DNA from: Alphaproteobacteria bacterium
GTDB taxonomy: Bacteria > Pseudomonadota > Alphaproteobacteria > CAAHEQ01 > UBA3637
NCBI GenBank assembly: GCA_045632845.1
Contig: JAZQXL010000023.1
Span: 8,485 to 72,484, forward strand
Length of the DNA stretch: 64,000 nucleotides
Direction of reading: 5' to 3'
How positions within the stretch are numbered: the first letter of the stretch is position 1; every line of letters starts with the position of its first letter. Of the stretch, positions 4,184-63,641 are shown in pieces. Under the pieces are notes generated by a model. It was not told the origin of the DNA. It saw only the letters and a list, made by a program, of their open reading frames with translations, and did no database searches. Position numbers and translations under genes: made by a program.

Positions 4184-4192
4184 CCCCCCCCC
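4184..4192 (-). repeat. homopolymeric tract, C9 on the plus strand (G9 on the sense strand of the downstream gene)
   Basis: Counted directly: ttaCCCCCCCCCgaat. It lies 9 nt upstream of the -35 hexamer of the promoter above. Confidence 0.95.
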
Positions 4193-9761: not shown

Positions 9762-10772
9762 ATGTCTATTCAAGGAACAACAGCACTTGACACTTTTTTG
9801 GAAGAAACTGGTTGGCACACTGCAAAAAAATGCCTTTTAGCACATGATGCTTCTTTTCGCTGGTATGACAGGCTTGAAAAAGAAACAGGCGAAACAATGG
9901 TTTTGATGAATGCCCCTATACCGATGGAAAACCCAGCTCAATTTGTTTTTGTTGATGAACTCCTTGAAAACATTGGACTAAAAGTTCCTCATATTTTTCA
10001 TCGAGATCTAAAAAATGGATTTTTGTTGCTTGAAGATTTCGGTGACAATACATTCACACGTCTTATCAAAAATGGACATGATGAAATGGCCCTTTATGAA
10101 AAAGCAACAAAAGCACTTATCCATTTGCAAAAAAATATTCAAACCAATTGCGGATTAAAAGAATATGATTGGAATTTAATGTTTTTTGAAGCATCCCTTC
10201 TTCCTCTTTGGTATATCAAATATGTTGTAAAAAAAGAATTAACTGAAGAAGATATGCTTGAGTTTGAAAATATTTGGAAAACGATCTATCAAAAAATTGC
10301 GCAAGTTCCTCAAACACTTGTTTTATTAGATTATCATGTTGATAATTTAATGATTACAAAAACAGGTGACTGTGGTTTACTTGACTTTCAAGATGCAAGG
10401 TTCGGCCCAGTTACTTATGATTTAGCCTCTTTGCTTGAAGATGCAAGACGTCCTGTTCCAGAACACATTCAACAAGCAATGCTTGATCTTTACTTTAAGG
10501 AATTACCAGAATTTAACACCCCTGAATTTAAAGAGGCATATCCTCTTATGGCTGTGCAACGTCATACAAAAGTCATTGGGATTTTTGTACGTTTGTTTGC
10601 AAGAGATAAAAAAGACAGATACTTAAAACACATTCCATTTGTTTGGTCATTGCTTGAAAAACATTTGGATAACCTATTGTTAAAAGAGTATAAATCTTGG
10701 TTAGATAAGCACGTTCCAAGTGAAATCAGAAAAATTGTTCCTTTTGAAGGAGAAACAGTTCATGTCAATTAA
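9762..10772 (+). CDS. amgK: aminoglycoside-phosphotransferase-fold kinase, AmgK-like (MurNAc/GlcNAc anomeric kinase)
   Basis: APH-fold motifs LLDYHVDNLM and LLDFQDA. Preferred ATG is 9762, preceded by GAGGAG. It sits in the conserved tsaE-amgK-murU-addBA block. Confidence 0.6.
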   Translation: MSIQGTTALDTFLEETGWHTAKKCLLAHDASFRWYDRLEKETGETMVLMNAPIPMENPAQFVFVDELLENIGLKVPHIFHRDLKNGFLLLEDFGDNTFTRLIKNGHDEMALYEKATKALIHLQKNIQTNCGLKEYDWNLMFFEASLLPLWYIKYVVKKELTEEDMLEFENIWKTIYQKIAQVPQTLVLLDYHVDNLMITKTGDCGLLDFQDARFGPVTYDLASLLEDARRPVPEHIQQAMLDLYFKELPEFNTPEFKEAYPLMAVQRHTKVIGIFVRLFARDKKDRYLKHIPFVWSLLEKHLDNLLLKEYKSWLDKHVPSEIRKIVPFEGETVHVN

Positions 10773-11490
10773 AACAGCGATGGTTTTGGCAGCTGGTCGA
10801 GGTACCAGAATGCGTCATTTAACTGACAATCAACCAAAACCTTTGGTTAAAATTGATGGCATATCTCTTCTTAGTCATATTATTCAAAAAATTAAAAAAC
10901 ATGGGTTAGAAAACATCGTTATCAACACTTGTTATAAAAGTGAGATGATTAAAGAAGAAGTTTCGAATGAAAAGAATATTCTCATTTCTTTTTCTGATGA
11001 AGAGACGGCACTTGAAACTGGCGGTGGGGTAAAAAAAGCTCTTTCAAAACTGAATGAATTGGGTGGAGAAAATGGTTTTTTTGTTCTAAATGCTGATCCA
11101 TTATGGACAGAGCCAACAATGCCCATATTAGAACAACTAGAACAAACTTGGAATCCTGAAAAAATGGATATCTTACTAGCTGTTGTTCCCATTCAACAAG
11201 CTTATGGAGACGTTCCAGATGGAAATTATTTTATTGAAAACGGCCATTTAAGACGAAAAAGACCTAATGAAAAAAATATCCCCTACTTATTTATGGGGAT
11301 ACAAATCATCCACCCAAGAGTTTTTGCCCAATCTTTGCCAGAAGCTTTTAGTTTAAGAGATTTATATGATCAATCACAAGAAAATGGCCGTTTAGGACAC
11401 ATTATTTTTGACGGAAAATGGTTCCATGTTGGAACACCTGAAGCAGTTGATGAAACTGAAAAACTCTTCACAATGGGAAAAAACAAATGA
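10762..11490 (+). CDS. murU: sugar-1-phosphate nucleotidyltransferase, MurU-like
   Basis: Preferred start MSIKTAMVLAAGRGTRM (nucleotidyltransferase G-rich loop), preceded by GAAGGAGA. It overlaps the end of amgK. Confidence 0.62.
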   Translation: MSIKTAMVLAAGRGTRMRHLTDNQPKPLVKIDGISLLSHIIQKIKKHGLENIVINTCYKSEMIKEEVSNEKNILISFSDEETALETGGGVKKALSKLNELGGENGFFVLNADPLWTEPTMPILEQLEQTWNPEKMDILLAVVPIQQAYGDVPDGNYFIENGHLRRKRPNEKNIPYLFMGIQIIHPRVFAQSLPEAFSLRDLYDQSQENGRLGHIIFDGKWFHVGTPEAVDETEKLFTMGKNK

Positions 11491-36339: not shown

Positions 36340-38046
36340 TTATGACTTCATTTGACGGATACAGCGTCTTGCAATTTTAAGTGCATTTTGAAAATCACTT
36401 GCCACGGAAAGTGTTTTCCAATTAACACGTTCTTGCAATAACACATGGTGCAAAATACGTCTTGGTTGTTTTTTAATATTACAGATAATAACTTTTGTGT
36501 TTTGTTTTTTAAGTTTTTTAATAAATTCAACAATCAAATTAGCACCACTTGCATCAATCAATGGAACTTGTCCCATACGCAAAATCAAAACACGTGGTGG
36601 TGTTTTAAATTGATTGAGAAATGAGGCAACTTCATCAACCCCACCAAAGAACAAAGGTCCAGAAACACGCAAAGCAACAACCCCCTTCTCTGCCAAGGTT
36701 TCATTGATGTTTTCACCACCGAATTTTTCTCTAGAAAGTTTATCTTCATTTTCAATTGCAATTTGATGGCTCATACGATGCATAAAAATAATGCTTGCCA
36801 TAACAAAACCAACTGAAATAGCAGTATTTAAATCAACAAATACAGTTAAAAGTAATGTTACAATTAAGGTGTTTCGATCCCCTTTTGGAGCTGTTAAGAG
36901 TTTTTTGATTTTATCAAGACTTAACATATTCCAACCAATCAAAATCATAACCACGGATAAACATGCCAATGGAATAAATCCTGCAACACCTGCCAAAACA
37001 AGCATAAAAAGAAGAATAAACACAGCATGTAACATCCCCGCCACAGGAGAATAGGCATTTGCTTTATAGTTTGTTGCCGTTCTTGCAATAGCACCTGTTG
37101 CTGGCAACCCAGAGAAAAAAGCTGCAGCAATATTTGCTGTTCCTTGTGCAACAAGCTCAACATTTGGGTTATGGTTATCACCACTCATACCATCAACAAC
37201 TTTGGCACTTAACAAAGATTCAATCCCTGCTAAAAAGGCAATTGTAAAGGCACTAGGCAACAATCCTAAAATCATGTTTATTTGAAAATCTGGCACACTT
37301 GGCATTGGCAAAAAGTGAGGAACGGATCCAAATCTAGAACCAATTGTGTCAACACCCAAACCAAAAAGAACAACAACAAGAGTTGATAAAATAACACTTA
37401 ATAAATAAAAAGGAGAGCGTGGATACTTCTTCTTCAACACAACAATTGTTGCAAATGCCACAGCACTAATAATAAGCGTACTTAAATTGAGGGTGTGAAT
37501 GTTTGAAAAATAAGATTGCCATTTTTCTAAAAATGCAGCTGGCACATTTTCAATTCTCAACCCTAATAAATCCTTAATTTGAGTTGAAATCAAAATAACA
37601 CCAATCCCAGCTGTAAAACCAGTAACAACAGGATATGGAATATATTTAATATATGTTCCCAATCTTAAAAGACCTGCAACAATCAAAATAAGGCCTGCTA
37701 AAACCATTGTGAGTAAAAGGCCAGCATATCCGTGCTGAGAAAGAACCCCTAAAATAATAATGATAAAAGCCCCTGTTGGCCCCCCAATTTGATAGCGTGA
37801 TCCACCCAAAAATGAAACAAAAAAACCAGCAACGACAGCTGTATAAAGTCCTTTTTCTGGGGCAACCCCTGAAGCAATTGCAAAAGCCATTGCCAATGGA
37901 ATAGAAACAACTGCAACCGTTAATGCAGCAATGCAATCTCGTTTAAAATCACTAACTGTATAACGCTTTTTCAACACCTCAAAAATTTTAGGTGTAAAAT
38001 GTCTTTTAATCGACTTTTTAATCTTTTTGATTCCTTTTTCAAACAT
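36340..38046 (-). CDS. SulP-family sulfate/anion transporter with C-terminal STAS domain
   Basis: 568 aa. Polytopic membrane protein with SulP-like segments (AFAIASGVAPEKGLYTAVVAGF, QIGGPTGAF) and a STAS tail (ALRVSGPLFFGG ... PLIDASGANLIVEFIKKL). Confidence 0.85.
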   Translation of the reverse strand: MFEKGIKKIKKSIKRHFTPKIFEVLKKRYTVSDFKRDCIAALTVAVVSIPLAMAFAIASGVAPEKGLYTAVVAGFFVSFLGGSRYQIGGPTGAFIIIILGVLSQHGYAGLLLTMVLAGLILIVAGLLRLGTYIKYIPYPVVTGFTAGIGVILISTQIKDLLGLRIENVPAAFLEKWQSYFSNIHTLNLSTLIISAVAFATIVVLKKKYPRSPFYLLSVILSTLVVVLFGLGVDTIGSRFGSVPHFLPMPSVPDFQINMILGLLPSAFTIAFLAGIESLLSAKVVDGMSGDNHNPNVELVAQGTANIAAAFFSGLPATGAIARTATNYKANAYSPVAGMLHAVFILLFMLVLAGVAGFIPLACLSVVMILIGWNMLSLDKIKKLLTAPKGDRNTLIVTLLLTVFVDLNTAISVGFVMASIIFMHRMSHQIAIENEDKLSREKFGGENINETLAEKGVVALRVSGPLFFGGVDEVASFLNQFKTPPRVLILRMGQVPLIDASGANLIVEFIKKLKKQNTKVIICNIKKQPRRILHHVLLQERVNWKTLSVASDFQNALKIARRCIRQMKS

Positions 38047-52113: not shown

Positions 52114-52848
52114 CTATAATGAAAAGTTTTTGCCTAAATATGTTCTACGGACATTTTCATCTGCAATAATTTCTTCAGGCGTTCCTTGTTTCAAAACAAC
52201 CCCATCATGCAAAATATAGGCTCTATCAATGATACTTAATGTTTCCCGTACGTTGTGATCCGTAATCAAAACACCAAGACCTCGGTTTTTGAGCTGGCCA
52301 ACCAACTCTTTAATCTCACCAACCGCAATAGGATCAATCCCCGCCAACGGTTCGTCTAACAAAATATAAGATGGCTTTGAAGCCAAAGCACGTGCAATTT
52401 CTAACCGTCTTCTCTCACCACCAGAAAGCGCTCTTGATGGTGAAAATCTCAAATGTTCAATTGAAAACTCTTTTAAAAGTGAATCAAGTTCTTGTTCCCT
52501 TTTTTCTTCATTTTTTTCAACAACTTCTAACACAGCACGAATGTTATCTTCAACATTCAACCCTCTGAAAATAGAAGCTTCTTGAGGCAAATAACCAATT
52601 CCTAGTCTTGCACGTCTATATACTGGAAATGATGTAATATCAATCCCATTAAGTGTGATTTTTCCAGAATTTGGAGCAATCAAACCAGTCACACAGTAAA
52701 AAGAAGTTGTCTTCCCTGCCCCATTTGGCCCCAAAAGACCAACAGCTTCCCCTTGTTGAACAGACAAGGAAACATCTTTTAAAACAGTCCTTTTTTTATA
52801 ATTTTTGCTCAAATTTGAAATAACAAGTCCGCGTTGCGGTACAATCAT
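52114..52848 (-). CDS. lptB: LPS export ABC transporter ATP-binding protein
   Basis: 244 aa. Walker A GPNGAGKTT, signature LSGGERRR and Walker B ILLDEP. It lies downstream of the LptC/A-like gene with a 4-nt overlap. Confidence 0.9.
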   Translation of the reverse strand: MIVPQRGLVISNLSKNYKKRTVLKDVSLSVQQGEAVGLLGPNGAGKTTSFYCVTGLIAPNSGKITLNGIDITSFPVYRRARLGIGYLPQEASIFRGLNVEDNIRAVLEVVEKNEEKREQELDSLLKEFSIEHLRFSPSRALSGGERRRLEIARALASKPSYILLDEPLAGIDPIAVGEIKELVGQLKNRGLGVLITDHNVRETLSIIDRAYILHDGVVLKQGTPEEIIADENVRRTYLGKNFSL

Positions 52849-54218
52849 TTATCCTCACTTTCATTTTCAAAATCAGCTGGAATTAAACTCCCTGATATGC
52901 GATTTTGTGTTTTTTGCTCATAAGATTTTAATGAACTGATACCCGTCTTTAAATTCATACTTGCCCATTTACCATTTAGCACACTATTTCCCTGATGTAA
53001 AGAAACATTATCATAAAGATCAACCATTTCTGTTTTTGGGTCATAAATACCATAGTCACTGTGAATACGTTGAACACCATTTGATGCTTTTACATTCCCA
53101 ACAGCAATGATTTTTTCAATTTCTTGATCTTTTTTAACTGTTTCCTTATAAAAAACAAACATCTTATCAGCTAAAATAAGTTGTTTATTTTCTTTCACCA
53201 AGGCATCTTTGTTTAAATAAACAAGTTGATTGACTTGTTCCGGCAATTTAACAAACTGATATTTTTTCAAAGGGTTAACCATTTCTAAAATATCAGCTTT
53301 TTCTTTAAACAAGATCATTTCTTCAGCTTGAACTGTTTTATTTTGTTCAAACGCTTGAGCTTTTTTATACGCTCTGACTTTTGTAAGAACCGTTTTATTA
53401 TAAGCATCTTTCTTATGTGTTAAAGTGATTTCTTCAGCACGAATATGATCGCTTTTTTGATAAATGTTAGCATTTTGAACAGCTGTAATTGTGTTCAATG
53501 CTTGATCAACAATAAGACCATTCTCACTTGTAATTAAAATATTATTTTTATTCTTTTTAAAATAGGCATCCTGATCTTTAAAGTCTAACTTTGCAACCGC
53601 TGCAATTGATTTTTCTTTTTCAAACAAAAGTGTTTTTGTTTTCCCTTTAAAATCAATTTTTTCACCTTTATTTGTTACAAAAAAACCTTTTGCTTGCAAC
53701 ATGCCTGCAACACCTTTAATAAAAACATCATTATCACTTGAAATTGTGTTTTTGTCATAATCATAAACAACTTTTGTTGAAATAGCATCATATCCAGTAT
53801 CTGTTGAAGTAGTGATCTCATCTTCAAAATAAAGATATTTTTCATTTTGAAAGGCCAAAGCATATGGACTGATGGATGTCAACTTCATCCCATCAGAGGT
53901 TTGATAAACAGCCTTTGGATTGTTCAATTTTAAAATCTTTTTAGCAGCGTCTATTTCTTGAACTGTTTCAGCCACAACACTTAACGGATTGTTGCGTTTG
54001 TCTTTTGAAAAGAATTGTACTCCTTCCATATCAACACCACCGCCTTGTTTGACATTCAAAGACGGAACTGCTACAGAAAATTTTTCTTTTTCTTCAACAA
54101 AAGCAGGCCAAACAAGCATTGTTGATGCCAATAAAAATGCAAAAATTGGTAAACACCGTTTAAACATAAAAACACGGCGTGAATGAATTTTGATTTTTAA
54201 CAGGCGAAGTGTGAACAT
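52845..54218 (-). CDS. OstA/LptA-family protein, apparent LptC-LptA fusion
   Basis: 457 aa. N-terminal anchor CLPIFAFLLASTMLVWPAFV. The first half is LptC-like (between kdsD and lptB). The second half is LptA-like (ADKMFVFYKE...IIAVGNVKASNGVQRIHSDYGIYDPKTEMVDLYDNVSLHQGNSVLNG). RBS AAAGGAA lies before ATG 54218. Confidence 0.55.
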   Translation of the reverse strand: MFTLRLLKIKIHSRRVFMFKRCLPIFAFLLASTMLVWPAFVEEKEKFSVAVPSLNVKQGGGVDMEGVQFFSKDKRNNPLSVVAETVQEIDAAKKILKLNNPKAVYQTSDGMKLTSISPYALAFQNEKYLYFEDEITTSTDTGYDAISTKVVYDYDKNTISSDNDVFIKGVAGMLQAKGFFVTNKGEKIDFKGKTKTLLFEKEKSIAAVAKLDFKDQDAYFKKNKNNILITSENGLIVDQALNTITAVQNANIYQKSDHIRAEEITLTHKKDAYNKTVLTKVRAYKKAQAFEQNKTVQAEEMILFKEKADILEMVNPLKKYQFVKLPEQVNQLVYLNKDALVKENKQLILADKMFVFYKETVKKDQEIEKIIAVGNVKASNGVQRIHSDYGIYDPKTEMVDLYDNVSLHQGNSVLNGKWASMNLKTGISSLKSYEQKTQNRISGSLIPADFENESEDK

Positions 54219-54230
54219 AAAAATTCCTTT

Positions 54231-55202
54231 CTAAGCAACACCAACTTGTAATAACAAATGCATGGTCAAAAGACCCATCGGTTTCATTTCTCCATCAACA
54301 ACAAAAAGATTTGTAATTTTCTTTTCATTCATCAAACGAAGAACTTCAACACAAAGCATATCACCCACAACAGTCTTTGGATTTTTGGTCATAATATCAA
54401 ATGCTGTTTTGTTGATTAAATCATTTCCCATATGACGACGCAAGTCACCATCCGTAATCATCCCAATCAACTCACCAGCATCATTCAAAACCCCTAAGCA
54501 ACCCCAGCTTTTTGCCGTCATAACAACCAAAGCTTCAGACATTGGCGTTTCAGATGAAACCAAAGGCATTTCATCCCCTTTAACCATAACATCTCGCCCA
54601 CGCAAAAGGACATTACCCAACTTGCCACCTGGGTGCCTATCACGAAATTCTTCAGCTGAAAAACCTTTTTGTTCAATCAACGCAACAGCCAAAGCATCCC
54701 CAACAGCCAACGTTGTTGTTGTTGATGTTGTTGGAGCCAAACCAAGAGGACAAGCTTCTGGTGCCGTCTTTTTATCAGGAATCAAAAGCGTCAAATCAGC
54801 TGCTTTTGCCATAGAACTTTCCATCACACTTGTAATGGCAATCATTGGAATTCCAAAACGTCTTGAATATGAAATAATATCAGCCATTTCTTTGCTTTCA
54901 CCTGAATTTGAAATTGCCAATAATAGGTCATCTTTTGTCATCATCCCCAAATCACCATGACTTGCTTCCCCTGGATGCACAAAAAAAGCAGGTGTCCCTG
55001 TTGATGCCAATGTTGCAGCAATCTTTTGACCAATGTGGCCACTTTTTCCCATACCTGAAACAATGATACGACCTTTAATTTGCATCATTTTTTCAACAGC
55101 TTGCACAAAAGCATCTGAAAAATTTTGTTTTAAAACTTGCAATCCATAAATTTCTTTATCAATAACCGTACAAGCACTTTTAATCAACGCTTCTCTATCC
55201 AT
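54231..55202 (-). CDS. kdsD: arabinose-5-phosphate isomerase (SIS + tandem CBS)
   Basis: SIS motif VSGMGKSGHIGQKIAATLASTGTPAFFVHP, plus GGKLG and two CBS domains. Preferred start MDREALI (ATG 55202), preceded by GGGGGAG. Confidence 0.86.
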   Translation of the reverse strand: MDREALIKSACTVIDKEIYGLQVLKQNFSDAFVQAVEKMMQIKGRIIVSGMGKSGHIGQKIAATLASTGTPAFFVHPGEASHGDLGMMTKDDLLLAISNSGESKEMADIISYSRRFGIPMIAITSVMESSMAKAADLTLLIPDKKTAPEACPLGLAPTTSTTTTLAVGDALAVALIEQKGFSAEEFRDRHPGGKLGNVLLRGRDVMVKGDEMPLVSSETPMSEALVVMTAKSWGCLGVLNDAGELIGMITDGDLRRHMGNDLINKTAFDIMTKNPKTVVGDMLCVEVLRLMNEKKITNLFVVDGEMKPMGLLTMHLLLQVGVA

Positions 55203-55212
55203 TTTCTCCCCC

Positions 55213-55824
55213 TTAATGAGCAAAAATATCTGGTTCAGCAAAGGAACTTAAATCCAACTTAGCCCTTGTTGTCATAAAAGAAAAACAGTCTTGAGCTAAA
55301 TCATATCGCCCTTCTCTTTTAAGCAAAACATCCAATTTTTCTTTCAACTGATGCAAATATAAAACATCACTGGCAGCATATTGTTGTTGCGCTTGAGAAA
55401 GCTCATCAACACCCCAATCAGACGTTTGTTGTTCTTTTTCAAGTGCAACACCTAATAAATCCAAACAAAGAGACTTTAAACTATGAGATGGTGTAGAAGT
55501 TCTTGCTAATTTTGAAGCTATTTTTGTACAATAAATAGGGGCAACTTCAACCCCTAAGTCATTCAAAATCTTTGCAACATCAAATCTTGCAAAGTGAAAA
55601 ATCTTCAAAATCTTTTTATCTGTTAAAACTTTTTTTAAATTAGGGCAATCAACCCCTTTTAAAATCTGCACTAAATAGGCATTTCCCTTCCCATCTGAAA
55701 GCTGAACCAAACAAAGGCGATCTCTCAAAAGATTCAACCCCATTGTTTCAGTATCGATTGCCACTTCTTTTTTAAAAGAGACAAAATCAGGTAAATCACC
55801 TTTAAAAACCAATATTTGCGCCAT
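55213..55824 (-). CDS. RNase D-like 3'-5' exonuclease (DEDDy)
   Basis: About 203 aa. Exo motifs AIDTETMGL, HFARFD and YAASDVLYL. Preferred start MAQILVF, preceded by GAGGTG. Confidence 0.75.
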   Translation of the reverse strand: MAQILVFKGDLPDFVSFKKEVAIDTETMGLNLLRDRLCLVQLSDGKGNAYLVQILKGVDCPNLKKVLTDKKILKIFHFARFDVAKILNDLGVEVAPIYCTKIASKLARTSTPSHSLKSLCLDLLGVALEKEQQTSDWGVDELSQAQQQYAASDVLYLHQLKEKLDVLLKREGRYDLAQDCFSFMTTRAKLDLSSFAEPDIFAH

Positions 55825-55964
55825 AAGACACCTCATAATTATGATAAATATTTATTCTTTATATACTATCAAAAAATGAAAATCAACAAAAATTTTCATT
55901 CATTTTTCACTTGCATTTTTTATATAGATATGTAAGTATAAACCAAAATTTGGGGGAAACAAAT

Positions 55965-56534
55965 ATGATAAAAAGCTATTTTTTTGTTCTTTTTATTTTT
56001 TTTCATGCATTTTTAACAAATGCGCAAACAACTTTTCCCTCTTTTGAAGATAGAGTTCATATTTTAAAAACCCCATTTGAACCGGACTTATGCCTTGATG
56101 GATATGCAGGATCTTGGACAGGGGCTTGCATTTGCACACAAAAGCAAGAAAAGCCGAACAGATACTGCCTTTCTTCTTCCAACAAAATTGAAATTCTGCC
56201 TTATATAAAAGTGAATGATAAAACAATCACCCTTTCGGGCGGAATAACAAACTGGGAAGAAGCAAAACTTTTTTGCACACAAATCGGTGATGGGTTTAAA
56301 TTAGCCTCTCGAGCTGATTTTAATTGCAAACAAACAGGCCTTGGCTGCCTTGACAATGAATTGTTCCTCCCAATTAAAGAAAAATATGGCAACAGAGGCT
56401 TTTTTTGGCTAGAAGAAACTGAAGATCGTAAAAAAGCCTATTACGCTGATTTAAATGATGGAACGATATATAACACTTCAAAATCAAATTCAACAACCAT
56501 GCAAGCATTATGCATTAAAGAGGATAAAAAATGA
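55965..56534 (+). CDS. secreted Cys-rich protein with C-type-lectin-like / DUF1566-like C-terminal half
   Basis: 189 aa from MIKSYFFVLFIFFHAFLTNAQT (signal peptide; RBS GGGGGA). 9 Cys. The segment ITNWEEAKLFCTQIGDGFKLASRADF ... FFWLEE ... ALCIKE resembles the WxEAxxxC...LAS lectin-like pattern. ATGA overlap with the next gene. Confidence 0.4.
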   Translation: MIKSYFFVLFIFFHAFLTNAQTTFPSFEDRVHILKTPFEPDLCLDGYAGSWTGACICTQKQEKPNRYCLSSSNKIEILPYIKVNDKTITLSGGITNWEEAKLFCTQIGDGFKLASRADFNCKQTGLGCLDNELFLPIKEKYGNRGFFWLEETEDRKKAYYADLNDGTIYNTSKSNSTTMQALCIKEDKK

Positions 56535-58069
56535 AATTTAAATTTTCACTTTTATTATGTTTATTAAGCTGTTCAAGTTTTGCTCTTGAAGCAGATCAAA
56601 AAAGAGAAGTTGAAATTAACGCTCAGTATGAAGAAGTTGAATACACGTTTGAAGAACCTTTTGTTCTTCAAGACCCATATAATAGAAACCCTCTTTCAGC
56701 ACTTGTGAAATTTCCAACTGAAAATGAGGCTCAAATTACATTACAAATTTTATCAAAAGAAGGGGTACCTGAACTAACCCACACTTTTGATGAATTTAAA
56801 AAAGAGCATGAAATCCCTGTTTTAGGGCTTTACCCTAATATGGATAACAAAATTCAATTAACTGCCACAGATAAAGAGGGTACCACTCGAATAAACACGC
56901 TTTCAATTACAACAAAAAAAGCAAGCAAAAGAGCTTTATTTACCATTCAAAACAAACAAGACCAAAAAATGAAGTATCATTATTTGCACGGCGGTCTTGT
57001 TTTTGATGAAAATGGCGTTGTTCGTCTTGATTTTAAACCAGAATATGAAATGCTCTATTTTCTCAACAACTCCTTTGTTGCAGAAGATAGAAATAAGGGT
57101 CTTATACAATATAATATAATGGGGAAAAAAGAAAAGGTCTTTACCTACCCTGATGGCTTTACCTCTTTCACCCACGGGCTGACACAAAAACCAAATCAAA
57201 ATTATCTGGTCATTGGATCATTTAACAATCAAAAAGCCACCTTTCAAGATAAAGAAGCTCAAACACAAAGAGAATTTGTAATTGAATTAGATTATGAAAC
57301 AGGCAAAATGGTCAATAAAATTGATTTAGCAACCCTTTTAAACCCTGATCGCTCTGTTATTATTAAATCTAACACCCAAAATTATGGATTAAATAACTGG
57401 TGCCATATCAACTCTGTCGATTATAACAAAGAAGATGAAAGTATTGTCGTTTCTTGCAGACATGTTGGATTGATTAAAATTAATGAAAAAACAAATGAAC
57501 TTGATTTTGTGATTGCCCCCCATAAGGGATTTGAAAAATCAGGCAGAGATGGCAAAGGGCAAGACCTTTCAAGTAAATTACTCACCGCTTTAAATAATAT
57601 GGGAGAAACACTACCCGACACAGTTCAAGAAGGAACACAAAGTTATCCCGACTTTAAATGGCCAACAAAAACGCATGATGCTAAAACACTTGGGAATGGC
57701 ATATATAGTATTTTTGATAACTCTGGGCCTTTGTATGACAAAACAATAGCAACAACCACTCTTTCTAATGCTCAAGTTTTTAAAGTGGATGAAAAGAACA
57801 AAACCATTCAAAGCATCTGGTTTGAACCACTTGATTTTCATTCAGAATCAGGCTCAAGCGTTCTTTACAACCCTAAAGAAAACGAAGTAACCGTTTATTT
57901 AAGCATTGTTAAAGATAATTATCAACAAGGTCTAGCCACAGGCAAACTCATTCGTTATGATTTAACCACACACCAAAAACTTTTTGAAGCCAGCATTTAT
58001 CGTGGTGGGGAAACATATTTTTATGGCCTTATGCCATTTTCATTTTATAACAACAAGGATTTAAAATAA
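56531..58069 (+). CDS. arylsulfotransferase (ASST) family protein, exported
   Basis: 512 aa. Signal peptide MKFKFSLLLCLLSCSSFALEA. ASST-like core NWCHINSVDYNKEDESIVVSCRHVGLIKI and a later WPTKTHDAKTLGNG. From my memory of the E. coli AssT alignment, these cover the His/Arg/His positions described as catalytic. Confidence 0.75.
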   Translation: MKFKFSLLLCLLSCSSFALEADQKREVEINAQYEEVEYTFEEPFVLQDPYNRNPLSALVKFPTENEAQITLQILSKEGVPELTHTFDEFKKEHEIPVLGLYPNMDNKIQLTATDKEGTTRINTLSITTKKASKRALFTIQNKQDQKMKYHYLHGGLVFDENGVVRLDFKPEYEMLYFLNNSFVAEDRNKGLIQYNIMGKKEKVFTYPDGFTSFTHGLTQKPNQNYLVIGSFNNQKATFQDKEAQTQREFVIELDYETGKMVNKIDLATLLNPDRSVIIKSNTQNYGLNNWCHINSVDYNKEDESIVVSCRHVGLIKINEKTNELDFVIAPHKGFEKSGRDGKGQDLSSKLLTALNNMGETLPDTVQEGTQSYPDFKWPTKTHDAKTLGNGIYSIFDNSGPLYDKTIATTTLSNAQVFKVDEKNKTIQSIWFEPLDFHSESGSSVLYNPKENEVTVYLSIVKDNYQQGLATGKLIRYDLTTHQKLFEASIYRGGETYFYGLMPFSFYNNKDLK

Positions 58070-58809
58070 TGGGAGAAATAATTCTTTTTAGTATACTCGG
58101 CTTTTTTGCAAGCATTATTGATGGCTGTATTGGTATGGCCTATGGGACGATTTTAGCCTCCATTTTTGCCTTAAATGGCGTACCACTATTGGTGAGTAGT
58201 GCAAGCATTCACTTTTCTGAAATTTTCACAACCCTTGCCTCAGGCCTTTCGCATCTATCTTTCAAAAATGTTGATTTCAAATTACTAAAAAAAATTGTGT
58301 TGCCTGGTGCACTTGGAGCTGTTATTGGAGCATTAATGCTTTCCTTTGCAAGCGATCAAATATTAAGACCCATTGTTTCTTCCTATTTAATTGCTCTTGG
58401 GATATATATTCTTTTAAAACAACATGTTAAAAAGAAAACAAAGTCATTCAAAAGATTTAGATTTCTTGGCCTGATTGGTGGTTTTTGTGATGCTGCGGCA
58501 GGTGGCGGTTGGGGCCCAATTGTCACAGGAACACTCATTTCAAGAGGACACATTCCACATAAAACCATTGGAACAGTTAATTTGACTGAATTTTTTGTTA
58601 CACTTTCTCAATCAGCCATTTTCTTTTCAGCAATAGGCTTAACCTCTGTTAACATTGTGATTGGTCTTATTTTGGGAAGTGTTATTGCTGCCCCATTTGC
58701 AGCATATATTGTAAAAAAAATCAATCCAATGGTATTGATTAAATTGGTAGGATATATTATCATCATCACCAATATTATTAATTTAATTATGTTTTTTTGC
58801 GGATTATAG
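58069..58809 (+). CDS. TauE/SafE (TSUP) family membrane transporter
   Basis: 246 aa, about 7-8 TM segments. Two-fold internal TSUP pattern (IIDGCIGMAYGTIL ... FCDAAAGGGWGPIV). Its ATG shares one base with the upstream TAA (TAATG). Confidence 0.78.
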   Translation: MGEIILFSILGFFASIIDGCIGMAYGTILASIFALNGVPLLVSSASIHFSEIFTTLASGLSHLSFKNVDFKLLKKIVLPGALGAVIGALMLSFASDQILRPIVSSYLIALGIYILLKQHVKKKTKSFKRFRFLGLIGGFCDAAAGGGWGPIVTGTLISRGHIPHKTIGTVNLTEFFVTLSQSAIFFSAIGLTSVNIVIGLILGSVIAAPFAAYIVKKINPMVLIKLVGYIIIITNIINLIMFFCGL

Positions 58810-59667
58810 ATGAAACATTTAAAAATATTAGAAGCTGAAGCCATCGACTTGATCAGAGATGTTGTTTTTTCAAATGATATTGAAAAACAAATTGTTTTTT
58901 ATTCGATTGGAAAGGATTCTTCTTGCCTGCTCCATTTGTTTAAAAAAGCATTTCATCCCTTTCCTATCCCCGTTAAATTTATGCACATTGATACAGGTTG
59001 GAAATTTAAGGAGATGTATGAGTTTCGCAACAAAATTCAAAAAGATATTGAGCTTATCGTATATAAAAATCCAAAAAATTTGAACCCATTCACTGATGGC
59101 TCCTTATACACTGATGTTATGAAAACAGAAGCCCTCAAACAAGCGCTTAATCTTTATGATATTAAAATTGCATTTGGTGGGTCCAGACGGGATGAAGAAA
59201 AATCCCGCGCAAAGGAGAGAATGGTTTCTGTTAGAAATGAATATCACAAGTGGGATCCAAGAAATCAAAATCCTGAAATTGCCCCACTTTATAACACGTT
59301 TTTTACGCCCAAAACGTCTTTGCGTGTTTTTCCGCTTTCAAACTGGACAGAGCTTGACATTTGGCAATATATCAAGCAAGAAGAAATTGAAATTGTCCCC
59401 TTATATTTTGCCAAGAAAAGAAGAGTTCAAACACTGCCCTCTGGGATGATGATTGCAACAGAAAATGAAACAGGAGAACTTAAAAAAGTAAGATTTAGAA
59501 CTTTAGGTTGCTACCCGCTCACAGGAGCAGTTTTATCTGATGCAACTACCATTGACGATATCATTGAAGAGATTAAAACAGCCCAATATACCGAACGTAT
59601 TACACGAATTATCGATTATGATACCGAAGGCTCAATGGAAAAAAAGAAAAAGGATGGATATTTTTAA
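58810..59667 (+). CDS. cysD: sulfate adenylyltransferase subunit 2
   Basis: 285 aa. LEAEAIDLIRDV, PP-loop FYSIGKDSSCLLHL, HIDTGWKFKEMYEFRN and the C-terminal EGSMEKKKKDGYF typical of CysD. Confidence 0.9.
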   Translation: MKHLKILEAEAIDLIRDVVFSNDIEKQIVFYSIGKDSSCLLHLFKKAFHPFPIPVKFMHIDTGWKFKEMYEFRNKIQKDIELIVYKNPKNLNPFTDGSLYTDVMKTEALKQALNLYDIKIAFGGSRRDEEKSRAKERMVSVRNEYHKWDPRNQNPEIAPLYNTFFTPKTSLRVFPLSNWTELDIWQYIKQEEIEIVPLYFAKKRRVQTLPSGMMIATENETGELKKVRFRTLGCYPLTGAVLSDATTIDDIIEEIKTAQYTERITRIIDYDTEGSMEKKKKDGYF

Positions 59668-61043
59668 TGAAAAGTGTGTTTAAATTTATTTGCTGTGGCA
59701 ACGTAGATGATGGAAAATCCACACTGATTGGTCGCTTGTTGTTAGATACAAATAATGTGAAAAAAGACCAATTAGAAGATGCCCTTAAAGTTTCTAGAAA
59801 AAATGGCTCTGAACAAATCGAGTTAGCAATGTTGTTAGATGGTTTGCTTTCTGAAAGAGAACAACAAATCACTATTGACATTGCTCACAGATTTTTTGAT
59901 TATCAAGACATTCGCTTTCATATTTTAGATTGTCCAGGTCACGAGCAATATACAAAAAATATGGCCATTGCCGCTGCTGAAGCAAACACAGCCATTGTTG
60001 TGATTGATGCCCTCAAAGGAATCAAACCCCAAACTTTAAAACATATTGAAATTTGCAGCCTATTTCAAATCAAAAACATTTTGGTTTGCCTTACAAAAAC
60101 GGATTTATTAAAAAATTCAAAAGGTCAAATTGATCTTAAAAAACTAAAACCCCTTGAAAAAGAGATTCAATCCATTCTTAAAAATTATAACTTTAATTAT
60201 GAAATTATCCCTGTTAGCGCAGTTACAGGTTTTAACACTGATTTTGTCTTAAAGTTTTTGTATAAGAATGCACTTAAACATATTGAAAGTGAAGAAAAAA
60301 ACTCAAAACAAATACTTCACGTTTTGAACTCTAAACTTTTTAAAAATACAAGATATTATTATGCAAAACCAGTGTTTCAAAATAAAGAAATTTTAAACGA
60401 AAAATTCACCGTTTATCCGCAAAATACAACTGTTACAATAACCAAAAACTTTGATAACGGATGTTTTAGCATTTTGGAAAATGTTGATATTTCAAAAGGG
60501 GATTGCCTTTCAAACTCTGAAGTTTTAATCTCCAACAAAATTTCACACAAAAGTATCTTTTTTGATAAAAAAACCCCCTCTATGCTATTTAAACACGGAT
60601 CTTCCATCAGACGGGTTGTTCAACTAACCCCTTCTACGTTAGAATTAGATGGAGAAATCGTTTTTAACAACATTGAAGATATCAAACAAAATGGCTTTGG
60701 CATTTTCATTGACGAAATAACAAAAAAAACACTGGGCTGTGCCGTATTTTCAAACAACCAAAAAGAATGTGCGCCCTCCATGGACATTATCAATTACATC
60801 ATCTATGGGGCAACTCATTTAAAACGCGTTCAAAAAGCATTGGAAATTAAAAGTCAATTTCACCCTGCTCCTTTTATTTTAGATCCTGCGGATCTTAAAT
60901 TCAAAATTTTAACAACTGAAGAATTGATTATGCTTGCTGAATATATCAATTCACAAGGAACTTCAACCATCTGCTTAGCTGAAACTGAACCTAAAAAGCC
61001 TACCTCAAATTGCATACTAATCAATCTTGATCAGGAGAAGTAA
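59667..61043 (+). CDS. cysN: sulfate adenylyltransferase subunit 1 (GTPase) with about 95-aa extra C-terminal tail
   Basis: 458 aa. G1 GNVDDGKSTLIGRLL, LDGLLSEREQQITID, G3 DCPGHEQY and G4 TKTD. EF-Tu-like domains II/III end near residue 365. The tail is discussed in findings. Confidence 0.85.
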   Translation: MKSVFKFICCGNVDDGKSTLIGRLLLDTNNVKKDQLEDALKVSRKNGSEQIELAMLLDGLLSEREQQITIDIAHRFFDYQDIRFHILDCPGHEQYTKNMAIAAAEANTAIVVIDALKGIKPQTLKHIEICSLFQIKNILVCLTKTDLLKNSKGQIDLKKLKPLEKEIQSILKNYNFNYEIIPVSAVTGFNTDFVLKFLYKNALKHIESEEKNSKQILHVLNSKLFKNTRYYYAKPVFQNKEILNEKFTVYPQNTTVTITKNFDNGCFSILENVDISKGDCLSNSEVLISNKISHKSIFFDKKTPSMLFKHGSSIRRVVQLTPSTLELDGEIVFNNIEDIKQNGFGIFIDEITKKTLGCAVFSNNQKECAPSMDIINYIIYGATHLKRVQKALEIKSQFHPAPFILDPADLKFKILTTEELIMLAEYINSQGTSTICLAETEPKKPTSNCILINLDQEK

Positions 61044-61044
61044 T

Positions 61045-61491
61045 ATGAAATTCAAAACGCTCACTCTCATTGCTTTGATGTTTTTGTCACACCCTGCTTT
61101 TGCAGATTGGAAAATTGAAAAAAATGATCTTAAAACATTTGAAAAGTTTGCAAAAACGGATGAGGTTGAATTATACACCGGCGACAGTATTTTGCATGAT
61201 TTTGAAAATCTTCCAACAGAAGGTCACAAATTTGTTTTGGTCAAAATAACAGCAAGTAATCAAGACACAAGCATACCACCTCTCAATTCTTTAGCGTTCA
61301 AACTCAAAATAAATGATAAAACCTATTCAAGAATTGATAATGACAAATTTTTGCTCAATTATAACATCAAACCATTTACAAGATTAAAAATCAAAAAAGG
61401 AACTCATGAAGGGCATTTATTATTTGAAATACCAACAGCTGAACTTTCAAATAACGTGACTCTTTTTTATAACGATAAACCAATTCAATAG
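61045..61491 (+). CDS. secreted DUF4352-like (Ig-like fold) protein
   Basis: 148 aa from MKFKTLTLIALMFLSHPAFA (RBS AGGAGAAG). The pattern GHKFVLVKITASNQD ... AFKLKINDKTY ... HEGHLLFEIP matches the usual DUF4352 layout. Confidence 0.5.
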   Translation: MKFKTLTLIALMFLSHPAFADWKIEKNDLKTFEKFAKTDEVELYTGDSILHDFENLPTEGHKFVLVKITASNQDTSIPPLNSLAFKLKINDKTYSRIDNDKFLLNYNIKPFTRLKIKKGTHEGHLLFEIPTAELSNNVTLFYNDKPIQ

Positions 61492-61500
61492 GATTATTTT

Positions 61501-62923
61501 ATGCTAACTTTAAAAAAATCTTTTTTCATCAGTGGAGCTATTCTTTTAGCACTTGTCACACTAAAACACCAAAAAGACAATATTTTTCAATATGTTAAAC
61601 CCGTAAATGGGGGGGGGTATTGAGCAAGTTCTTTTTAACAATGAAGAACTTATTCCGCCTTTTTCGCCAGACACAAACACTTACCATGTCATCTCTGCAA
61701 GCACATTAAAACCAAATATCCTTCAAATTGGAGATATCAAAAAAGAAATTAAAATTGAAAATTTTGAAACAAACCCATCCATTCCATTAGATGTAAATGG
61801 GCAAAAAATCAACATTCATTTATATCCCAAAGAATATCCCAAATATTCAATGAAACAGTTTTCTCAACCAACAACAAACAACGCTATTACGATCACAAAC
61901 TTTACCCCTAATTGTGGAAATTCTTCTTTTAATTTTATCTTTTCAGAAACGGGCAAACTCCTTTTTTATCGACGGACCCGACTGGAACTTTGTACTTCAG
62001 ATTTCAAACAAACAACGCTTCCAAATGGGGAGAAAGTATATTCTTATATGCAACAAGAAAAACCTGTTCCTCCCTTTCATTACTTGAGTGGTTCACTGGT
62101 TGTAATGAATAGTCAATTTGAAGTAATTGATAAATTAACCATTCAAGAAACAGACAAGCACCCTGCTCTTATGGTTGAAAATCATGATTCATTGATTTTA
62201 GATAAAAATCACTTTATCCTTTCTGCCTATCATGAAACTGAAATTTTAAATCCAGTAACAGAGCAACCTGTTTTCGTGGCAGAATCTGTTATTCAAGAAA
62301 TCAAAGATGGAAAAGTTGTTTTTGATTGGGTTAGCTCAGATTATCCTGAATTATACACACATTTTAAATATCCAGATAAAAACTTAGATAAAAACTTTCA
62401 TGATTATATGCATTTTAACTCAATTATCATTGATCCAAAAGATAATAATTTCATTGTTTCCTTTGCCTCACAATCATCAATTGTTAAACTCAACCGACAA
62501 ACGGGTGAAATTATGTGGACATTAGGCGGATTAGGAGATGATTTCAAATTAGATAAAAAATATCACTTTTTTGGACAACACAGTCTTTCATTTGATGATA
62601 AAGGTAACATCATACTTTTCGACAACCAATCAGCAGATTTTAAAAATCGTATTAGTAAAGAACCTGAACTCAAATACAGTCGAATTTTAAAATTTAAACT
62701 CGATGAAAAAAACAAACAAATCTTATATGCAGAAGAAATTCCTCTTAATTTTCAAACAGAATCAATGGGCTCTGTTTATCAAACAGATGATGACACTTAT
62801 ATTATCTCAAAGGGAAATAAAAACGCTGTTGAAAAAATAAAGGTTAAAGGAAACAAAGTTCAAAAAATATGGGAATTACGCCTCCTTAAACCAACCTATC
62901 GAGCATATGAAATTAAACCATAG
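61501..62923 (+). pseudogene. second ASST-family gene, interrupted by a frameshift in a G9 tract (phase-variable, pseudogene or assembly error)
   Basis: Frame 1: ATG 61501 encodes MLTLKKSFFISGAILLALVTLKHQKDNIFQYVKPVNGGGY, stop TGA 61621-61623. Frame 2: 61607-62923 encodes a 438-aa ASST-like body (HDYMHFNSIIIDPKDNNFIVS...GEIMWTLGG...FFGQHSLSFDDKGNIILFDN). Removing one G joins them as ...KPVNGGGIEQVLF... Confidence 0.7.
61609..61617 (+). repeat. homopolymeric G9 tract at the 5' end of the second ASST gene
   Basis: Counted directly: aaatGGGGGGGGGtattgag. Confidence 0.95.
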
Positions 62924-62928
62924 GATTT

Positions 62929-63414
62929 TTACAAAGAAATCTCATATTCTTGAACAAAAGCGTCAATCCATTCTAAATATTGGCGATTTCCTGTCAATTT
63001 AAACCCATACTTTTGATAAAATTGATTTGAAATTGGGTAATTTTCCAACGTAAAGAGGTTTATTTTCTTAACACCTTGAGATTTCAAAAATTCCATTACA
63101 TAAAAAAGCAAAGCTTTGCCAAAACCATTTCGTTGACAATCTGGCAAAACATAAAAAACCTTTATTTCCGCGCAATTACCGTCAAACTCATTCAACCCAA
63201 TAAAGCCTTTAACCAGTCCCTCTTCTTCTGCCACAAAAACAAGCCCTTTTTCAACAGGGACTTTCATTTTTGCAATCCTTTTTTCCGAAACTTCATAAGC
63301 GCCACTATCTAAAATAACATCTTTTATATACCCACGATATGAAACTTTCCACGTTTGAACATGTACTTGAACAATTTGTTCAACATCATTTAAAGTAGCT
63401 TTTCTGATTTTCAT
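62929..63414 (-). CDS. GNAT-family N-acetyltransferase
   Basis: 161 aa. Acetyl-CoA motif VLPDCQRNGFGKALL and C-terminal NQFYQKYGF. Confidence 0.85.
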   Translation of the reverse strand: MKIRKATLNDVEQIVQVHVQTWKVSYRGYIKDVILDSGAYEVSEKRIAKMKVPVEKGLVFVAEEEGLVKGFIGLNEFDGNCAEIKVFYVLPDCQRNGFGKALLFYVMEFLKSQGVKKINLFTLENYPISNQFYQKYGFKLTGNRQYLEWIDAFVQEYEISL

Positions 63415-63419
63415 TGCAA

Positions 63420-63641
63420 TTATCTTTCATTTAAAACAGATTTTTTTTGTTCAACTAATTGATGAAGCACTTTATTTTGATTTGAAAGAATGCGTTTTGT
63501 TTCACATTGCTGATAAAGTGGGGCTTCCCCCGTATCAGGATATACAACAAAAGATGTGTCCACATATTGCGGCACAGTTACACAATATAAAGCCGTATCC
63601 GGCACTAAATGAGATGGAACCCCTAAGTTTTGAAAATTCAT
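63420..63641 (-). CDS. hypothetical small protein
   Basis: 73 aa from MNFQNLGVPSHL, with AGGAGG 6 nt upstream of ATG 63641. It ends 5 nt before the GNAT start. No recognised motif. Confidence 0.4.
   Translation of the reverse strand: MNFQNLGVPSHLVPDTALYCVTVPQYVDTSFVVYPDTGEAPLYQQCETKRILSNQNKVLHQLVEQKKSVLNER

Follow-up and report, generated by a model that had tools for sequence, protein, structure and literature searches.

In the window (the whole 64,000-nucleotide stretch of DNA analysed here), the genes of two exported aryl-sulfotransferase-family proteins, ASST1 and ASST2, stand in one seven-gene block with a transporter gene and the genes of CysD and CysN. A functional tie between the ASST genes and CysDN is the most strongly supported part of the preliminary description of this DNA, and no published description of the linkage was found in our literature search. 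As a tentative best explanation, we suggest that the operon may serve sulfate acquisition and activation, in which sulfate esters would be harvested, sulfate taken up and APS formed.

The ORF and junction check confirmed seven plus-strand genes (g1 to g7) with successive gaps of -4, -1, 0, -1, +1 and +9 nt, exactly as first described, together with the coordinates of g1 to g6. Stop and start codons overlap throughout the block, and the g1 stop and g2 start share an ATGA; the block is probably a tight operon with translational coupling. Upstream lies a divergent intergenic region (55837-55964, between 55836 and 55965), the presumed promoter site, which measures 128 nt rather than the roughly 140 nt estimated before. 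This region matched no Rfam family, and promoter-like sites in it were not commoner than in shuffled sequence. The block stops 5 nt short of a GNAT gene that runs convergently (62929-63414), and a SulP permease gene is present at 36340-38046, both as previously noticed. Searching the 64-kb window by tblastn revealed no cysC, cysH, cysI or cysJ, in agreement with the preliminary description; its premise that cysDN normally travels with cysC, cysH and cysIJ is not a rule. Apart from CysDN, all cluster products are membrane or exported proteins.

The families proposed for g2 to g7 were borne out by Pfam and NCBIfam searches, and the ASST-like ORFs do match ASST families. ASST1, encoded by g2 (56531-58069, plus strand), begins with an N-terminal signal peptide and matches Arylsulfotran_N (PF17425) and Arylsulfotrans (PF05935) (E = 2e-50). 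Its residues H215, H292, R310 and H382 align with His252, His356, Arg374 and His436 of E. coli ASST (3elq); among 37 homologues, the three catalytic histidines are invariant and R310 is nearly so. Compared with the assT-dsbL-dsbI locus of E. coli CFT073, ASST1 shows the same two Pfam domains, a signal peptide and equivalents of the catalytic residues, although its match to the 3elq chain is confined to three stretches (93 bits). Where that locus has dsbL and dsbI, the present one has a lectin-like secreted protein, an oxyanion transporter and CysDN. Neighbours of these kinds have not been reported for characterised ASST loci.

ASST1 is constantly accompanied upstream by g1 (55965-56534, plus strand), a secreted Cys-rich protein with an EGF-like motif that had been called lectin-like. 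No Pfam or NCBIfam family matched it, even when the threshold was relaxed to E <= 1, but the Foldseek matches of its AlphaFold model (pLDDT 85) were snaclecs and Legionella Lcl-C, which are C-type-lectin-like domains. Judged from this predicted structure, the name is correct at the level of fold. Only 18 homologues of g1 were found, all within its own lineage, and their cysteines are invariant. At two loci (L007 and L014) a CHR transporter half bears the g1 domain as a C-terminal fusion; thus the periplasmic partner of ASST1 is physically tied to the transporter.

CysD, the small subunit of ATP sulfurylase, is encoded by g4 (58810-59667, plus strand), which scores 357-367 bits on the NCBIfam CysD models (357 on NF003587). 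It shares 54% identity with E. coli CysD and retains the SIGKDS PP-loop; no gene of the cluster is better conserved, with 73-100% identity among relatives that have the same CysDN type. The following gene, g5 (59667-61043, plus strand), had been assigned as CysN. Its CysN-like GTPase domain is genuine: CysN models cover residues 2-190 only, the top PDB match is CysN (1zun_B), motifs G1 and G3 are preserved, and G4 reads TKTD, a variant found throughout the clade. The assignment was nevertheless corrected, since by sequence comparison the nearest relatives of g5 are bifunctional CysNC proteins and only a truncated, degenerate APS-kinase domain is left at its C-terminus. When g5 was aligned with CysNC relatives of 531-538 aa (41-52% identical, all with Pfam APS_kinase), the remnant mapped to about residues 372-458 (60780-61040, plus strand), with GATHLKRVQ where the Walker A motif GLSGAGKTT stands in CysNC, and the domain stopped after about 85 residues.

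The same decay was observed beyond this genome, as the sampled ASST-linked CysN proteins (414-463 aa) each carry a kinase stub and the canonical CysN of L013 has a kinase-like domain likewise devoid of a P-loop. The nearest relatives of g5, the cysD-(DUF2061)-cysNC pairs of other bacteria (L090-L092, 40-47% identical), share with it the clade-specific TKTD/TKCD G4 motif and the lack of any Pfam match detected for EF-Tu domains II/III. Unlike in g5, their APS_kinase is intact, its Walker A motif reading GLSG[AS]GKTT, and their neighbourhoods contain no ASST, TSUP or CHR gene. A kinase stub lacking the P-loop implies that the operon makes APS, not PAPS. Direct APS reduction is the usual assimilatory route in Alphaproteobacteria, and APS as the end-product would fit it.

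Between ASST1 and CysD, g3 (58069-58809, plus strand) encodes a TSUP (TauE/SafE, DUF81) membrane transporter (PF01925, E = 3e-35). Characterised members of the TSUP and CHR families transport sulfate-like oxyanions, and by analogy g3 is most likely a sulfate importer. In Corynebacterium glutamicum the DUF81/TSUP protein CysZ is needed for growth on sulfate or sulfite, hence its inferred role as an importer, and its gene adjoins cysDN as in the present operon (PMC1266029). The C. glutamicum cluster fpr2-cysIXHDNYZ differs in having cysH and cysI but no exported enzymes (PMC1266029), whereas the block described here has two ASST pairs but no reductive genes. Among relatives, the transporter slot is filled by TSUP, by a pair of short CHR proteins, by both or by neither (L011), and the position of TSUP also shifts. 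CHR genes directly adjoin cysD in L093-L095; in L095 the two overlap by 4 nt without an intervening ASST. The transporter and the sulfurylase therefore form a unit, in which the transporter can be translationally coupled to cysD. A transporter that is replaceable and sometimes overlaps cysD fits generic sulfate uptake.

The partner of ASST2 is g6 (61045-61491, plus strand), a secreted DUF4352 (Ig-like) protein with a signal peptide (PF11611, 27.4 bits at a cut-off of 25.9); DUF4352 genes likewise adjoin ASST paralogues in L014, L020, L024 and L025. The last gene, g7, had been taken as a single ORF (61501-62923), and a frameshift had thereby been missed: a G9 homopolymer (61609-61617, plus strand) splits the frame. 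The 5' piece (61501-61623, plus strand) is a 40-codon frame running from the ATG at 61501 to the TGA at 61621-61623. It carries the ASST2 signal anchor, and intact orthologues in L001 and L004 have colinear N-termini. The 3' body (61607-62923, plus strand), in the +1 frame relative to the anchor, holds the catalytic domain. Matches of g7 to Arylsulfotran_2 (PF14269, E = 1e-24) and Arylsulfotrans (8e-23) were obtained, and the top PDB match of the body is the sulfotransferase 9kf4. Profile alignment with ASST1 indicated that ASST2 retains the three catalytic histidines, with Ala-Ser standing in place of the Arg-His dyad in 6/6 orthologues. With one G removed, g7 encodes a 473-aa protein colinear with the intact orthologues of 471-475 aa.

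The G9 tract could act as a slipped-strand phase switch or reflect an assembly error. We give somewhat less than an even chance to the frameshift being an artefact of sequencing or assembly, or a mutation that has become fixed and inactivates the gene, rather than a reversible switch. Homopolymers are prone to errors, the strain is known from a single sequence, and relatives have at this site GATGGAGGT or AGAGGGGAT, one base shorter, with the gene intact and no tract. The same comparison also speaks against a simple error, because relatives have no tract of which it could be a miscount, and several A-to-G changes plus an extra base are needed to produce it. Moreover, the 64-kb window contains no G/C runs of 7 or 8 but exactly two of 9, whereas 0.28 runs of at least 8 are expected. 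The second run sits in a promoter region, and in L027 the promoter region of an ASST paralogue contains a G10 tract, 63-72 nt before the gene; both argue for a switch.

The neighbourhood survey placed g1-ASST1 beside CysD-CysN in 9 of the 10 species-representative loci of the ASST1 clade (L009-L017 and L026, with CysDN missing from L015) and in all further assemblies examined (L001-L008, L094). By comparison, CysDN was beside 0/70 other ASST loci (0/9 paralogous alphaproteobacterial loci and 0/61 from other phyla). The linkage holds across species with ASST1 identities of 46-83% and unrelated flanking genes, and recurs in about 15 distinct genomic contexts, so the arrangement is not due to chance. 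L013 and L014 contain a different, canonical E. coli-like CysDN (CysD 63% identical to that of E. coli) in convergent orientation. Recruitment of a second CysDN type in two species suggests that the linkage itself is under selection and does not stem from common ancestry alone.

It is improbable, in our judgement, that the linkage is regulatory or ecological only, with the ASST pairs and the transporter-CysDN genes doing separate jobs and merely being co-expressed. The ASSTs would then exchange or detoxify phenolic sulfates in the periplasm, while sulfate is activated for an unlinked cytoplasmic use; one sulfur- or phenol-responsive promoter is an example of such shared control. The module is indeed a mosaic, as ASST2 and DUF4352 are optional, ASST1 is missing in L093 and in the L095 fragment, and L015 has no CysDN; the 61 ASST loci of other phyla function without CysDN, and no intermediate joining the two halves can be named. 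However, co-regulation alone hardly explains two CysDN types recruited beside ASST1, stop/start overlaps throughout or a linkage that persists down to 46% ASST1 identity amid unrelated flanks.

Dedicated ATP sulfurylases beside sulfotransferases, apart from assimilatory genes, are also found in rhizobial NodPQ-NodH, Xanthomonas RaxPQ-RaxST and Bacteroides cysDNC-SULT. Those systems combine an active APS kinase with cytoplasmic PAPS-dependent sulfotransferases, whereas here a dead kinase stub accompanies exported transferases of a PAPS-independent family. In caprazamycin/liposidomycin biosynthesis, the ASST-type Cpz4 is fed by a PAPS-sulfated polyketide carrier, with a type III PKS and a PAPS-dependent sulfotransferase; to our knowledge, it is the only established ASST-type enzyme supplied, indirectly, from activated sulfate. 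That sulfation is cytoplasmic, while the present ASSTs are exported and accompanied by no type III PKS, PAPS-dependent sulfotransferase or kinase. The part of Cpz4 in caprazamycin sulfation has been described (PMC13426309).

In the ester-harvesting explanation, sulfuryl groups would flow inward. The exported ASSTs, each with its small secreted partner (g1 for ASST1, DUF4352 for ASST2), would be attachments to a transporter-CysDN core. They would strip sulfuryl from exogenous sulfate esters (host or dietary aryl sulfates, possibly sulfated glycans) via a sulfo-histidine intermediate, and the sulfate would finally be freed at the transporter, onto which g1 might dock the enzyme or its substrate. 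The oxyanion transporter, TSUP here and a short CHR pair in relatives, would bring the sulfate in, and CysD and CysN would convert it to APS, the PAPS step being missing with the kinase domain defunct. APS would be consumed by enzymes encoded elsewhere, most simply APS reductase. As a precedent, an AST-type enzyme originally termed 'aryl sulfatase' acts as a typical sulfatase without an acceptor (PMC13426309). We count in favour the conserved linkage, the two CysDN types, the transporter-cysD unit, the kinase decay and the g1-CHR fusion. A family search of the cluster products found no enzyme able to transfer sulfuryl from APS to a carrier or to export such a carrier, and this lack of machinery for inward-to-outward transfer is counted likewise.

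Several points count against ester harvesting. Characterised ASSTs transfer sulfuryl groups and do not hydrolyse. The sulfo-histidine form of the Bacteroides vulgatus ASST lasted 2 h without an acceptor (PMC12809581). Net sulfate release would thus depend on some new property or on an acceptor that is labile. No APS reductase or sulfite reductase turned up in the 64-kb window, nor at any of the cluster loci. Because the gut is rich in reduced sulfur, elaborate sulfate assimilation is not obviously needed; the CHR proteins that have been characterised export, as do TauE/SafE themselves; and poly-G at ASST genes (g7 and the L027 paralogue) would be more usual for functions at the surface or in host interaction than for nutrient scavenging.

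Some of these points would suit the opposite direction of flow, which we consider unlikely: cytoplasmic APS, or an APS-sulfated carrier, would reach the periplasm, where ASST1 and ASST2 would sulfate envelope, host or dietary acceptors selected by the lectin-like and Ig-like proteins. The conserved ASST-CysDN linkage requires some reason, and kinase loss is sensible if APS itself is the donor. Reduced sulfur is plentiful in the gut, the loci of the nearest CysNC relatives have no assimilatory genes nearby, Cpz4 sets a two-step precedent by relaying sulfate, and two ASST genes have poly-G tracts, phase variation being typical of surface-modifying enzymes. On the other hand, an operon without an APS kinase gives no PAPS, which tested ASSTs do not use as a donor anyway, and we know of no demonstration that APS serves as one. 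Nor does the cluster encode a cytoplasmic sulfotransferase, a carrier-making enzyme or a transporter of the families known for nucleotides or aryl sulfates; its transporter is interchangeable or absent and is coupled to cysD, not to the ASST genes. The original proposal of a self-contained extracytoplasmic sulfation module, with TSUP exporting a sulfo-donor, is not supported, in view of the kinase stub, the lack of an APS-to-carrier enzyme and the replaceable transporter.

Two recent papers describe what ASSTs do physiologically, and which donors they use, as unknown (PMC12809581, PMC13426309). Outward sulfation, if true, would give PAPS-independent ASSTs their first route of physiological donor supply. 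This conserved operon of uncultured gut Alphaproteobacteria offers a new genomic clue to the natural role of these poorly understood enzymes.

The region from 55965 to 62923 of the window is filled by seven plus-strand reading frames, g1 to g7, separated by gaps of -4, -1, 0, -1, +1 and +9 nt, identical to those of the preliminary description, with junctions of the types ATGA, TAATG, TAG-ATG, TAATG and TAAT-ATG. In order, they encode a secreted C-type-lectin-like protein (g1, 55965-56534), the first arylsulfate sulfotransferase, ASST1 (g2, 56531-58069; Arylsulfotran_N and Arylsulfotrans, E = 2e-50), a TSUP transporter (g3, 58069-58809; TauE, E = 3e-35), CysD (g4, 58810-59667), a CysN-like protein (g5, 59667-61043), a DUF4352 protein (g6, 61045-61491; 27.4 bits against a cut-off of 25.9) and, in two frames, ASST2 (g7, 61501-62923; Arylsulfotran_2, E = 1e-24). 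Pfam and NCBIfam profiles recovered the families expected for the ASSTs, TauE, CysD, the CysN GTPase and DUF4352; no family was matched by g1. Typical signal peptides were found at the N-termini of g1, g2 and g6. On its 5' side the operon is separated from an RNase-D-like gene by a 128-nt divergent gap, and on its 3' side a convergent GNAT gene lies 5 nt away.

An Rfam scan of the whole window returned no RNA family, and hence no riboswitch ahead of g1. Promoter and terminator consensus sites were no more numerous in 55600-63600 than in shuffled sequence, so that their counts are uninformative on internal promoters or terminators. The GC content of the cluster (0.31-0.35) is indistinct from that of the rest of the window (0.30-0.39) in the composition profile, which thus gives no indication of a recent genomic island. 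The SulP permease noticed earlier is genuine by its domains (SulP family with a STAS domain, E = 6e-86); its gene (36340-38046, minus strand) adjoins dut and secDF and is unlinked to the operon. Further upstream of the operon, a minus-strand gene at 52845-54218, between LptB (52114-52848) and KpsF (54231-55241), encodes a 457-aa protein whose relatives give weak LptC and LptD_N/LptA-type matches, which suggests a fused LptC-LptA-like protein. This neighbourhood is kept only in the window's own clade.

The nearest sequences belong to uncultured gut Alphaproteobacteria of low GC content, recovered from metagenomes of the human, rabbit and sheep gut, among others. With one genome scanned per species, ten loci carried an ASST1 orthologue, 46-83% identical; g1 lay immediately upstream of ASST1 in all ten, and CysD-CysN was directly adjacent in nine. 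Further assemblies had the same gene arrangement within quite different flanks. CysDN was found near none of 9 more distant ASST paralogues of the same class, and near none of 61 ASST loci of Lachnospiraceae, Sutterella, Campylobacter, Pseudomonas and others. The neighbourhood survey thus bore out the ASST-CysDN linkage, at 9/10 clade loci against 0/70 other ASST loci. In two species (loci L013 and L014) the neighbouring CysDN is of a different, canonical type in convergent orientation, with a CysD 63% identical to that of E. coli and recognisable CysN C-terminal domains. Recruitment of two CysDN lineages beside ASST1 argues for selection on the linkage. The L014 contig, which carries an alphaproteobacterial-type cluster, was deposited in a MAG labelled 'Lactobacillales', probably through a binning error rather than horizontal transfer.

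The CysD encoded by g4 is a full-length PP-loop subunit with an intact SIGKDS motif and 54% identity end to end with E. coli CysD; it scored 357 bits on NF003587 (cut-off 195) and 367 bits on TIGR02039, just below the cut-off of 397. The CysN-like g5 is less regular. Its GTPase domain is CysN-like (199 bits; best PDB match CysN 1zun_B; G1 and G3 motifs intact), and its unusual G4 motif TKTD is common to kinase-positive relatives. The CysN models match residues 2-190 only, whole-protein scores fall below all CysN cut-offs, Pfam finds no EF-Tu-like domains II/III, and a weak 49-residue match is left to the end of E. coli CysN. Outside the ASST-linked group, the nearest relatives of g5 are CysNC proteins of 531-538 aa (41-52% identity, 90-97% coverage), each carrying a Pfam APS_kinase domain. 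A Pfam search of g5 gave no PF01583 match; its last ~85 residues align with the start of the APS-kinase domain, the rest of which is absent, and GATHLKRVQ stands in place of the Walker A motif GLSGAGKTT of the relatives. By these alignments g5 is not a plain CysN, as it ends in a remnant of the APS-kinase domain of its bifunctional relatives. No exact copy of g5 was on record in the public assemblies searched, a collection that does not include this genome. As its kinase domain is truncated and lacks Walker A, the operon would be able to make APS but not PAPS.

With kinase domains of the relatives as queries, the only matches were faint remnants, located where cysN ends. As a candidate for an active or fused CysC near the clusters, we examined the 588-aa canonical CysN of L013 (4140-5906, minus strand) and rejected it; its C-terminal extension is kinase-like without a P-loop, with IGEKSFLFA at the site of GLSGSGKST in E. 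coli CysC. This extension reads as a second, independent dead kinase domain in an ASST-linked CysN. A tblastn search with E. coli CysH, CysI and CysJ against the window and 30 related loci gave only cross-matches to CysD, and the APS/PAPS reductase or sulfite reductase genes of an assimilatory cluster did not accompany cysDN in any of them.

Kinase status tracks ASST linkage. None of three kinase-positive CysNC loci had an ASST nearby, and among three further kinase-less CysN loci, picked as apparently outside the ASST1 match table, two had an ASST neighbour; the third showed CHR-CysDN only, with the contig ending 350 nt later. In other bacteria, kinase-positive relatives of g5 form compact cysD-DUF2061-cysNC units (L090, 8906-11617; L092, 8924-11563), with a DUF2061 gene of 77-78 aa between cysD and cysNC; NeuB and polysialyltransferase genes are found within 2-4 kb of the L090 unit. 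Directly downstream of cysN, three loci with CHR-type or transporter-less versions of the cluster (L010, ~13.6-14.2 kb; L011; L094, 9356-9934) encode a conserved 192-aa cytoplasmic protein. It was considered as a cytoplasmic transferase candidate and gave no Pfam match; it could be a missing component of the cluster.

The transporter g3 matches PF01925 at 122.6 bits over residues 9-234 of 246. Its slot is occupied by TSUP in the window's clade, and elsewhere by a short CHR (Chromate_transp) pair, by both, or by no adjacent transporter. In L095, one of the further kinase-less loci, no ASST separates the CHR pair from cysD, and the second CHR gene and cysD share 4 nt. That two unrelated families of small-oxyanion carriers, TSUP and CHR, occupy one slot coupled directly to ATP sulfurylase suggests that sulfate is what they carry and that they take it up. 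In C. glutamicum, genetic data on CysZ, a DUF81/TSUP protein encoded next to cysDN, agree with sulfate uptake (PMC1266029). A sulfate-uptake role is likely for both the short CHR pairs and the TSUP proteins. What recurs is thus a unit of transporter-CysD-CysN(kinase-dead). To this core are added one or two pairs of a small secreted protein and an ASST, namely g1 with ASST1 and DUF4352 with ASST2.

Both ASSTs scored above the curated thresholds, g2 with 172 bits on PF05935 and 68 bits on PF17425, and g7 with 88 bits on PF14269 and 82 bits on PF05935. Catalytic residues were compared with E. coli ASST, in which His436 is the histidine that accepts the sulfuryl group. H215, H292, R310 and H382 of g2 are the equivalents of His252, His356, Arg374 and His436; among 37 homologues the three histidines are invariant and R310 is nearly so. 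ASST2 has this set only in part, as the three histidines are kept and the Arg-His dyad is replaced by Ala-Ser in 6/6 orthologues; its closest solved relative is sulfotransferase 9kf4. Judged by eye, export is predicted for g2 from its N-terminal signal peptide and for the g7 orthologues from a signal anchor; in the window the g7 anchor and the enzyme body stand in different frames.

The secreted partner g1 gave no Pfam or NCBIfam match even at E <= 1, and only 18 homologues were found among 5.8 billion proteins. An AlphaFold model built from the homologue alignment (pLDDT 85) matches C-type-lectin-like domains, including the C-terminal domain of Legionella Lcl, and an EGF-like cysteine motif lies N-terminal to the lectin-like domain. 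The earlier 'lectin-like' designation therefore holds for the predicted fold only. Two other assignments of g1, to DUF1566 and to maturases resembling the formylglycine-generating enzyme, were rejected because its sequence supports neither; support extends only to a generic C-type-lectin fold. In two loci (L007, 8847-10004; L014, 6798-8081) a g1-type domain is fused to the C-terminus of the second half of a short-chain CHR (Chromate_transp) transporter, and both fusion genes directly precede ASST1.

Reading g7 as one open reading frame, as had been done at first, proved untenable. The frame starting with the ATG at 61501 encodes the signal anchor and ends at a TGA (61621-61623) right after a G9 run (61609-61617), which shifts the frame; the enzyme body lies in the +1 frame. 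With one G fewer in the tract (G8), a 473-aa protein results, colinear with the orthologues of 471-475 aa that close relatives encode in one piece. In these relatives the site reads GATGGAGGT or AGAGGGGAT, and the tract is missing from the nearest of them (98% ASST1 identity). The window contains no G/C runs of 7 or 8 and two of exactly 9, and shuffled sequence is expected to give 0.28 runs of 8 or more. As at contingency loci, a long homopolymer lies inside the 5' end of the reading frame, and the tract looks like a site of slipped-strand phase variation. The frameshift may instead be a homopolymer assembly error, the strain being represented by a single sequence. In the frameshifted form, the ASST2 body opens with its own ATG at 61607, overlapping the end of the 40-codon leader frame and with no obvious ribosome-binding site; reinitiation there, if it occurs, would yield an anchor-less, cytoplasmic ASST2.

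The second run of nine (4184-4192; C9 on the plus strand, G9 on the minus strand) lies between the terminator of a thioredoxin gene and the ATG at 4153 of a minus-strand gene (3539-4153; 204 aa, no Pfam match), 31-39 nt upstream of the start codon in the promoter region of this unrelated gene, and may be a promoter-level phase switch. In L027, a related alphaproteobacterial MAG, an ASST paralogue (9962-11551) is preceded by a G10 tract (9890-9899) at 63-72 nt from its start codon, which makes it the second ASST gene associated with poly-G in the lineage.

The core idea of the preliminary description, that the ASSTs are functionally wired to sulfate activation, is strongly supported by the conserved CysDN linkage. 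The most economical reading of that wiring, which we hold only tentatively, is inward scavenging of sulfate esters. The exported ASST pairs would strip sulfuryl groups off exogenous sulfate esters, with the lectin-like g1 as a docking element; the sulfate would be delivered to the importer and converted by CysDN to APS for enzymes encoded elsewhere. Several points weigh against it. No reductase genes were found in the window and the 30 related loci, the gut is rich in reduced sulfur, and functions that modify the cell surface are where switches of the poly-G kind are more typically seen. Moreover, characterised ASSTs do not readily hydrolyse their own sulfo-histidine (PMC12809581).

A more striking answer would be outward sulfation with APS as the supply, which we consider improbable. 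APS from the kinase-less CysDN would here be the physiological sulfuryl source for the exported, PAPS-independent ASSTs, via the TSUP/CHR transporter and the lectin-like partner across or at the membrane, and ASST2 would decorate the cell envelope, or molecules from the host or its diet, with sulfate in a phase-variable manner; this full scheme is likewise doubtful. The outward direction first proposed found no support, since a kinase, a cytoplasmic enzyme for sulfuryl transfer and a plausible donor exporter are all missing from the operon, and its transporter is generic and replaceable. The Cpz-type two-step sulfation differs in having a PAPS-dependent sulfotransferase as well as a type III PKS that makes the carrier, domains absent from the seven products and their conserved neighbours. 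Co-expression without a metabolic relay, with which the mosaic gene content agrees and against which the conserved CysDN linkage speaks, also seems unlikely. A reversed CysDN reaction, by which sulfate esters would yield ATP, was rejected on two grounds, the export of the ASSTs and the coupling of the reaction to GTP hydrolysis by CysN.

A full-text literature search found no paper linking ASST with cysDN; the operon architecture is real, conserved and built from known families, and apparently undescribed. ASSTs are widely used biocatalysts and have been implicated in the handling of drugs and polyphenols by the gut microbiota. Their physiological donors, acceptors and roles are stated to be unknown in papers of 2025-2026 (PMC12809581, PMC13426309). 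The conserved operon, in which a single ASST clade is joined with a sulfate transporter and an ATP sulfurylase that has specifically lost its APS-kinase domain, is the first genomic handle we found on this question. It leaves two sharply testable alternatives, in which the ASSTs are either the front end of sulfate-ester scavenging or the back end of PAPS-free sulfation. Also defined are a lineage-specific lectin-like partner, sometimes fused to a CHR transporter, and, in an uncultured gut alphaproteobacterium, an ASST gene that may be phase-switched by a poly-G tract. If the outward reading were true, it would constitute a PAPS-free biological sulfation pathway and would answer which donors ASSTs use in vivo.
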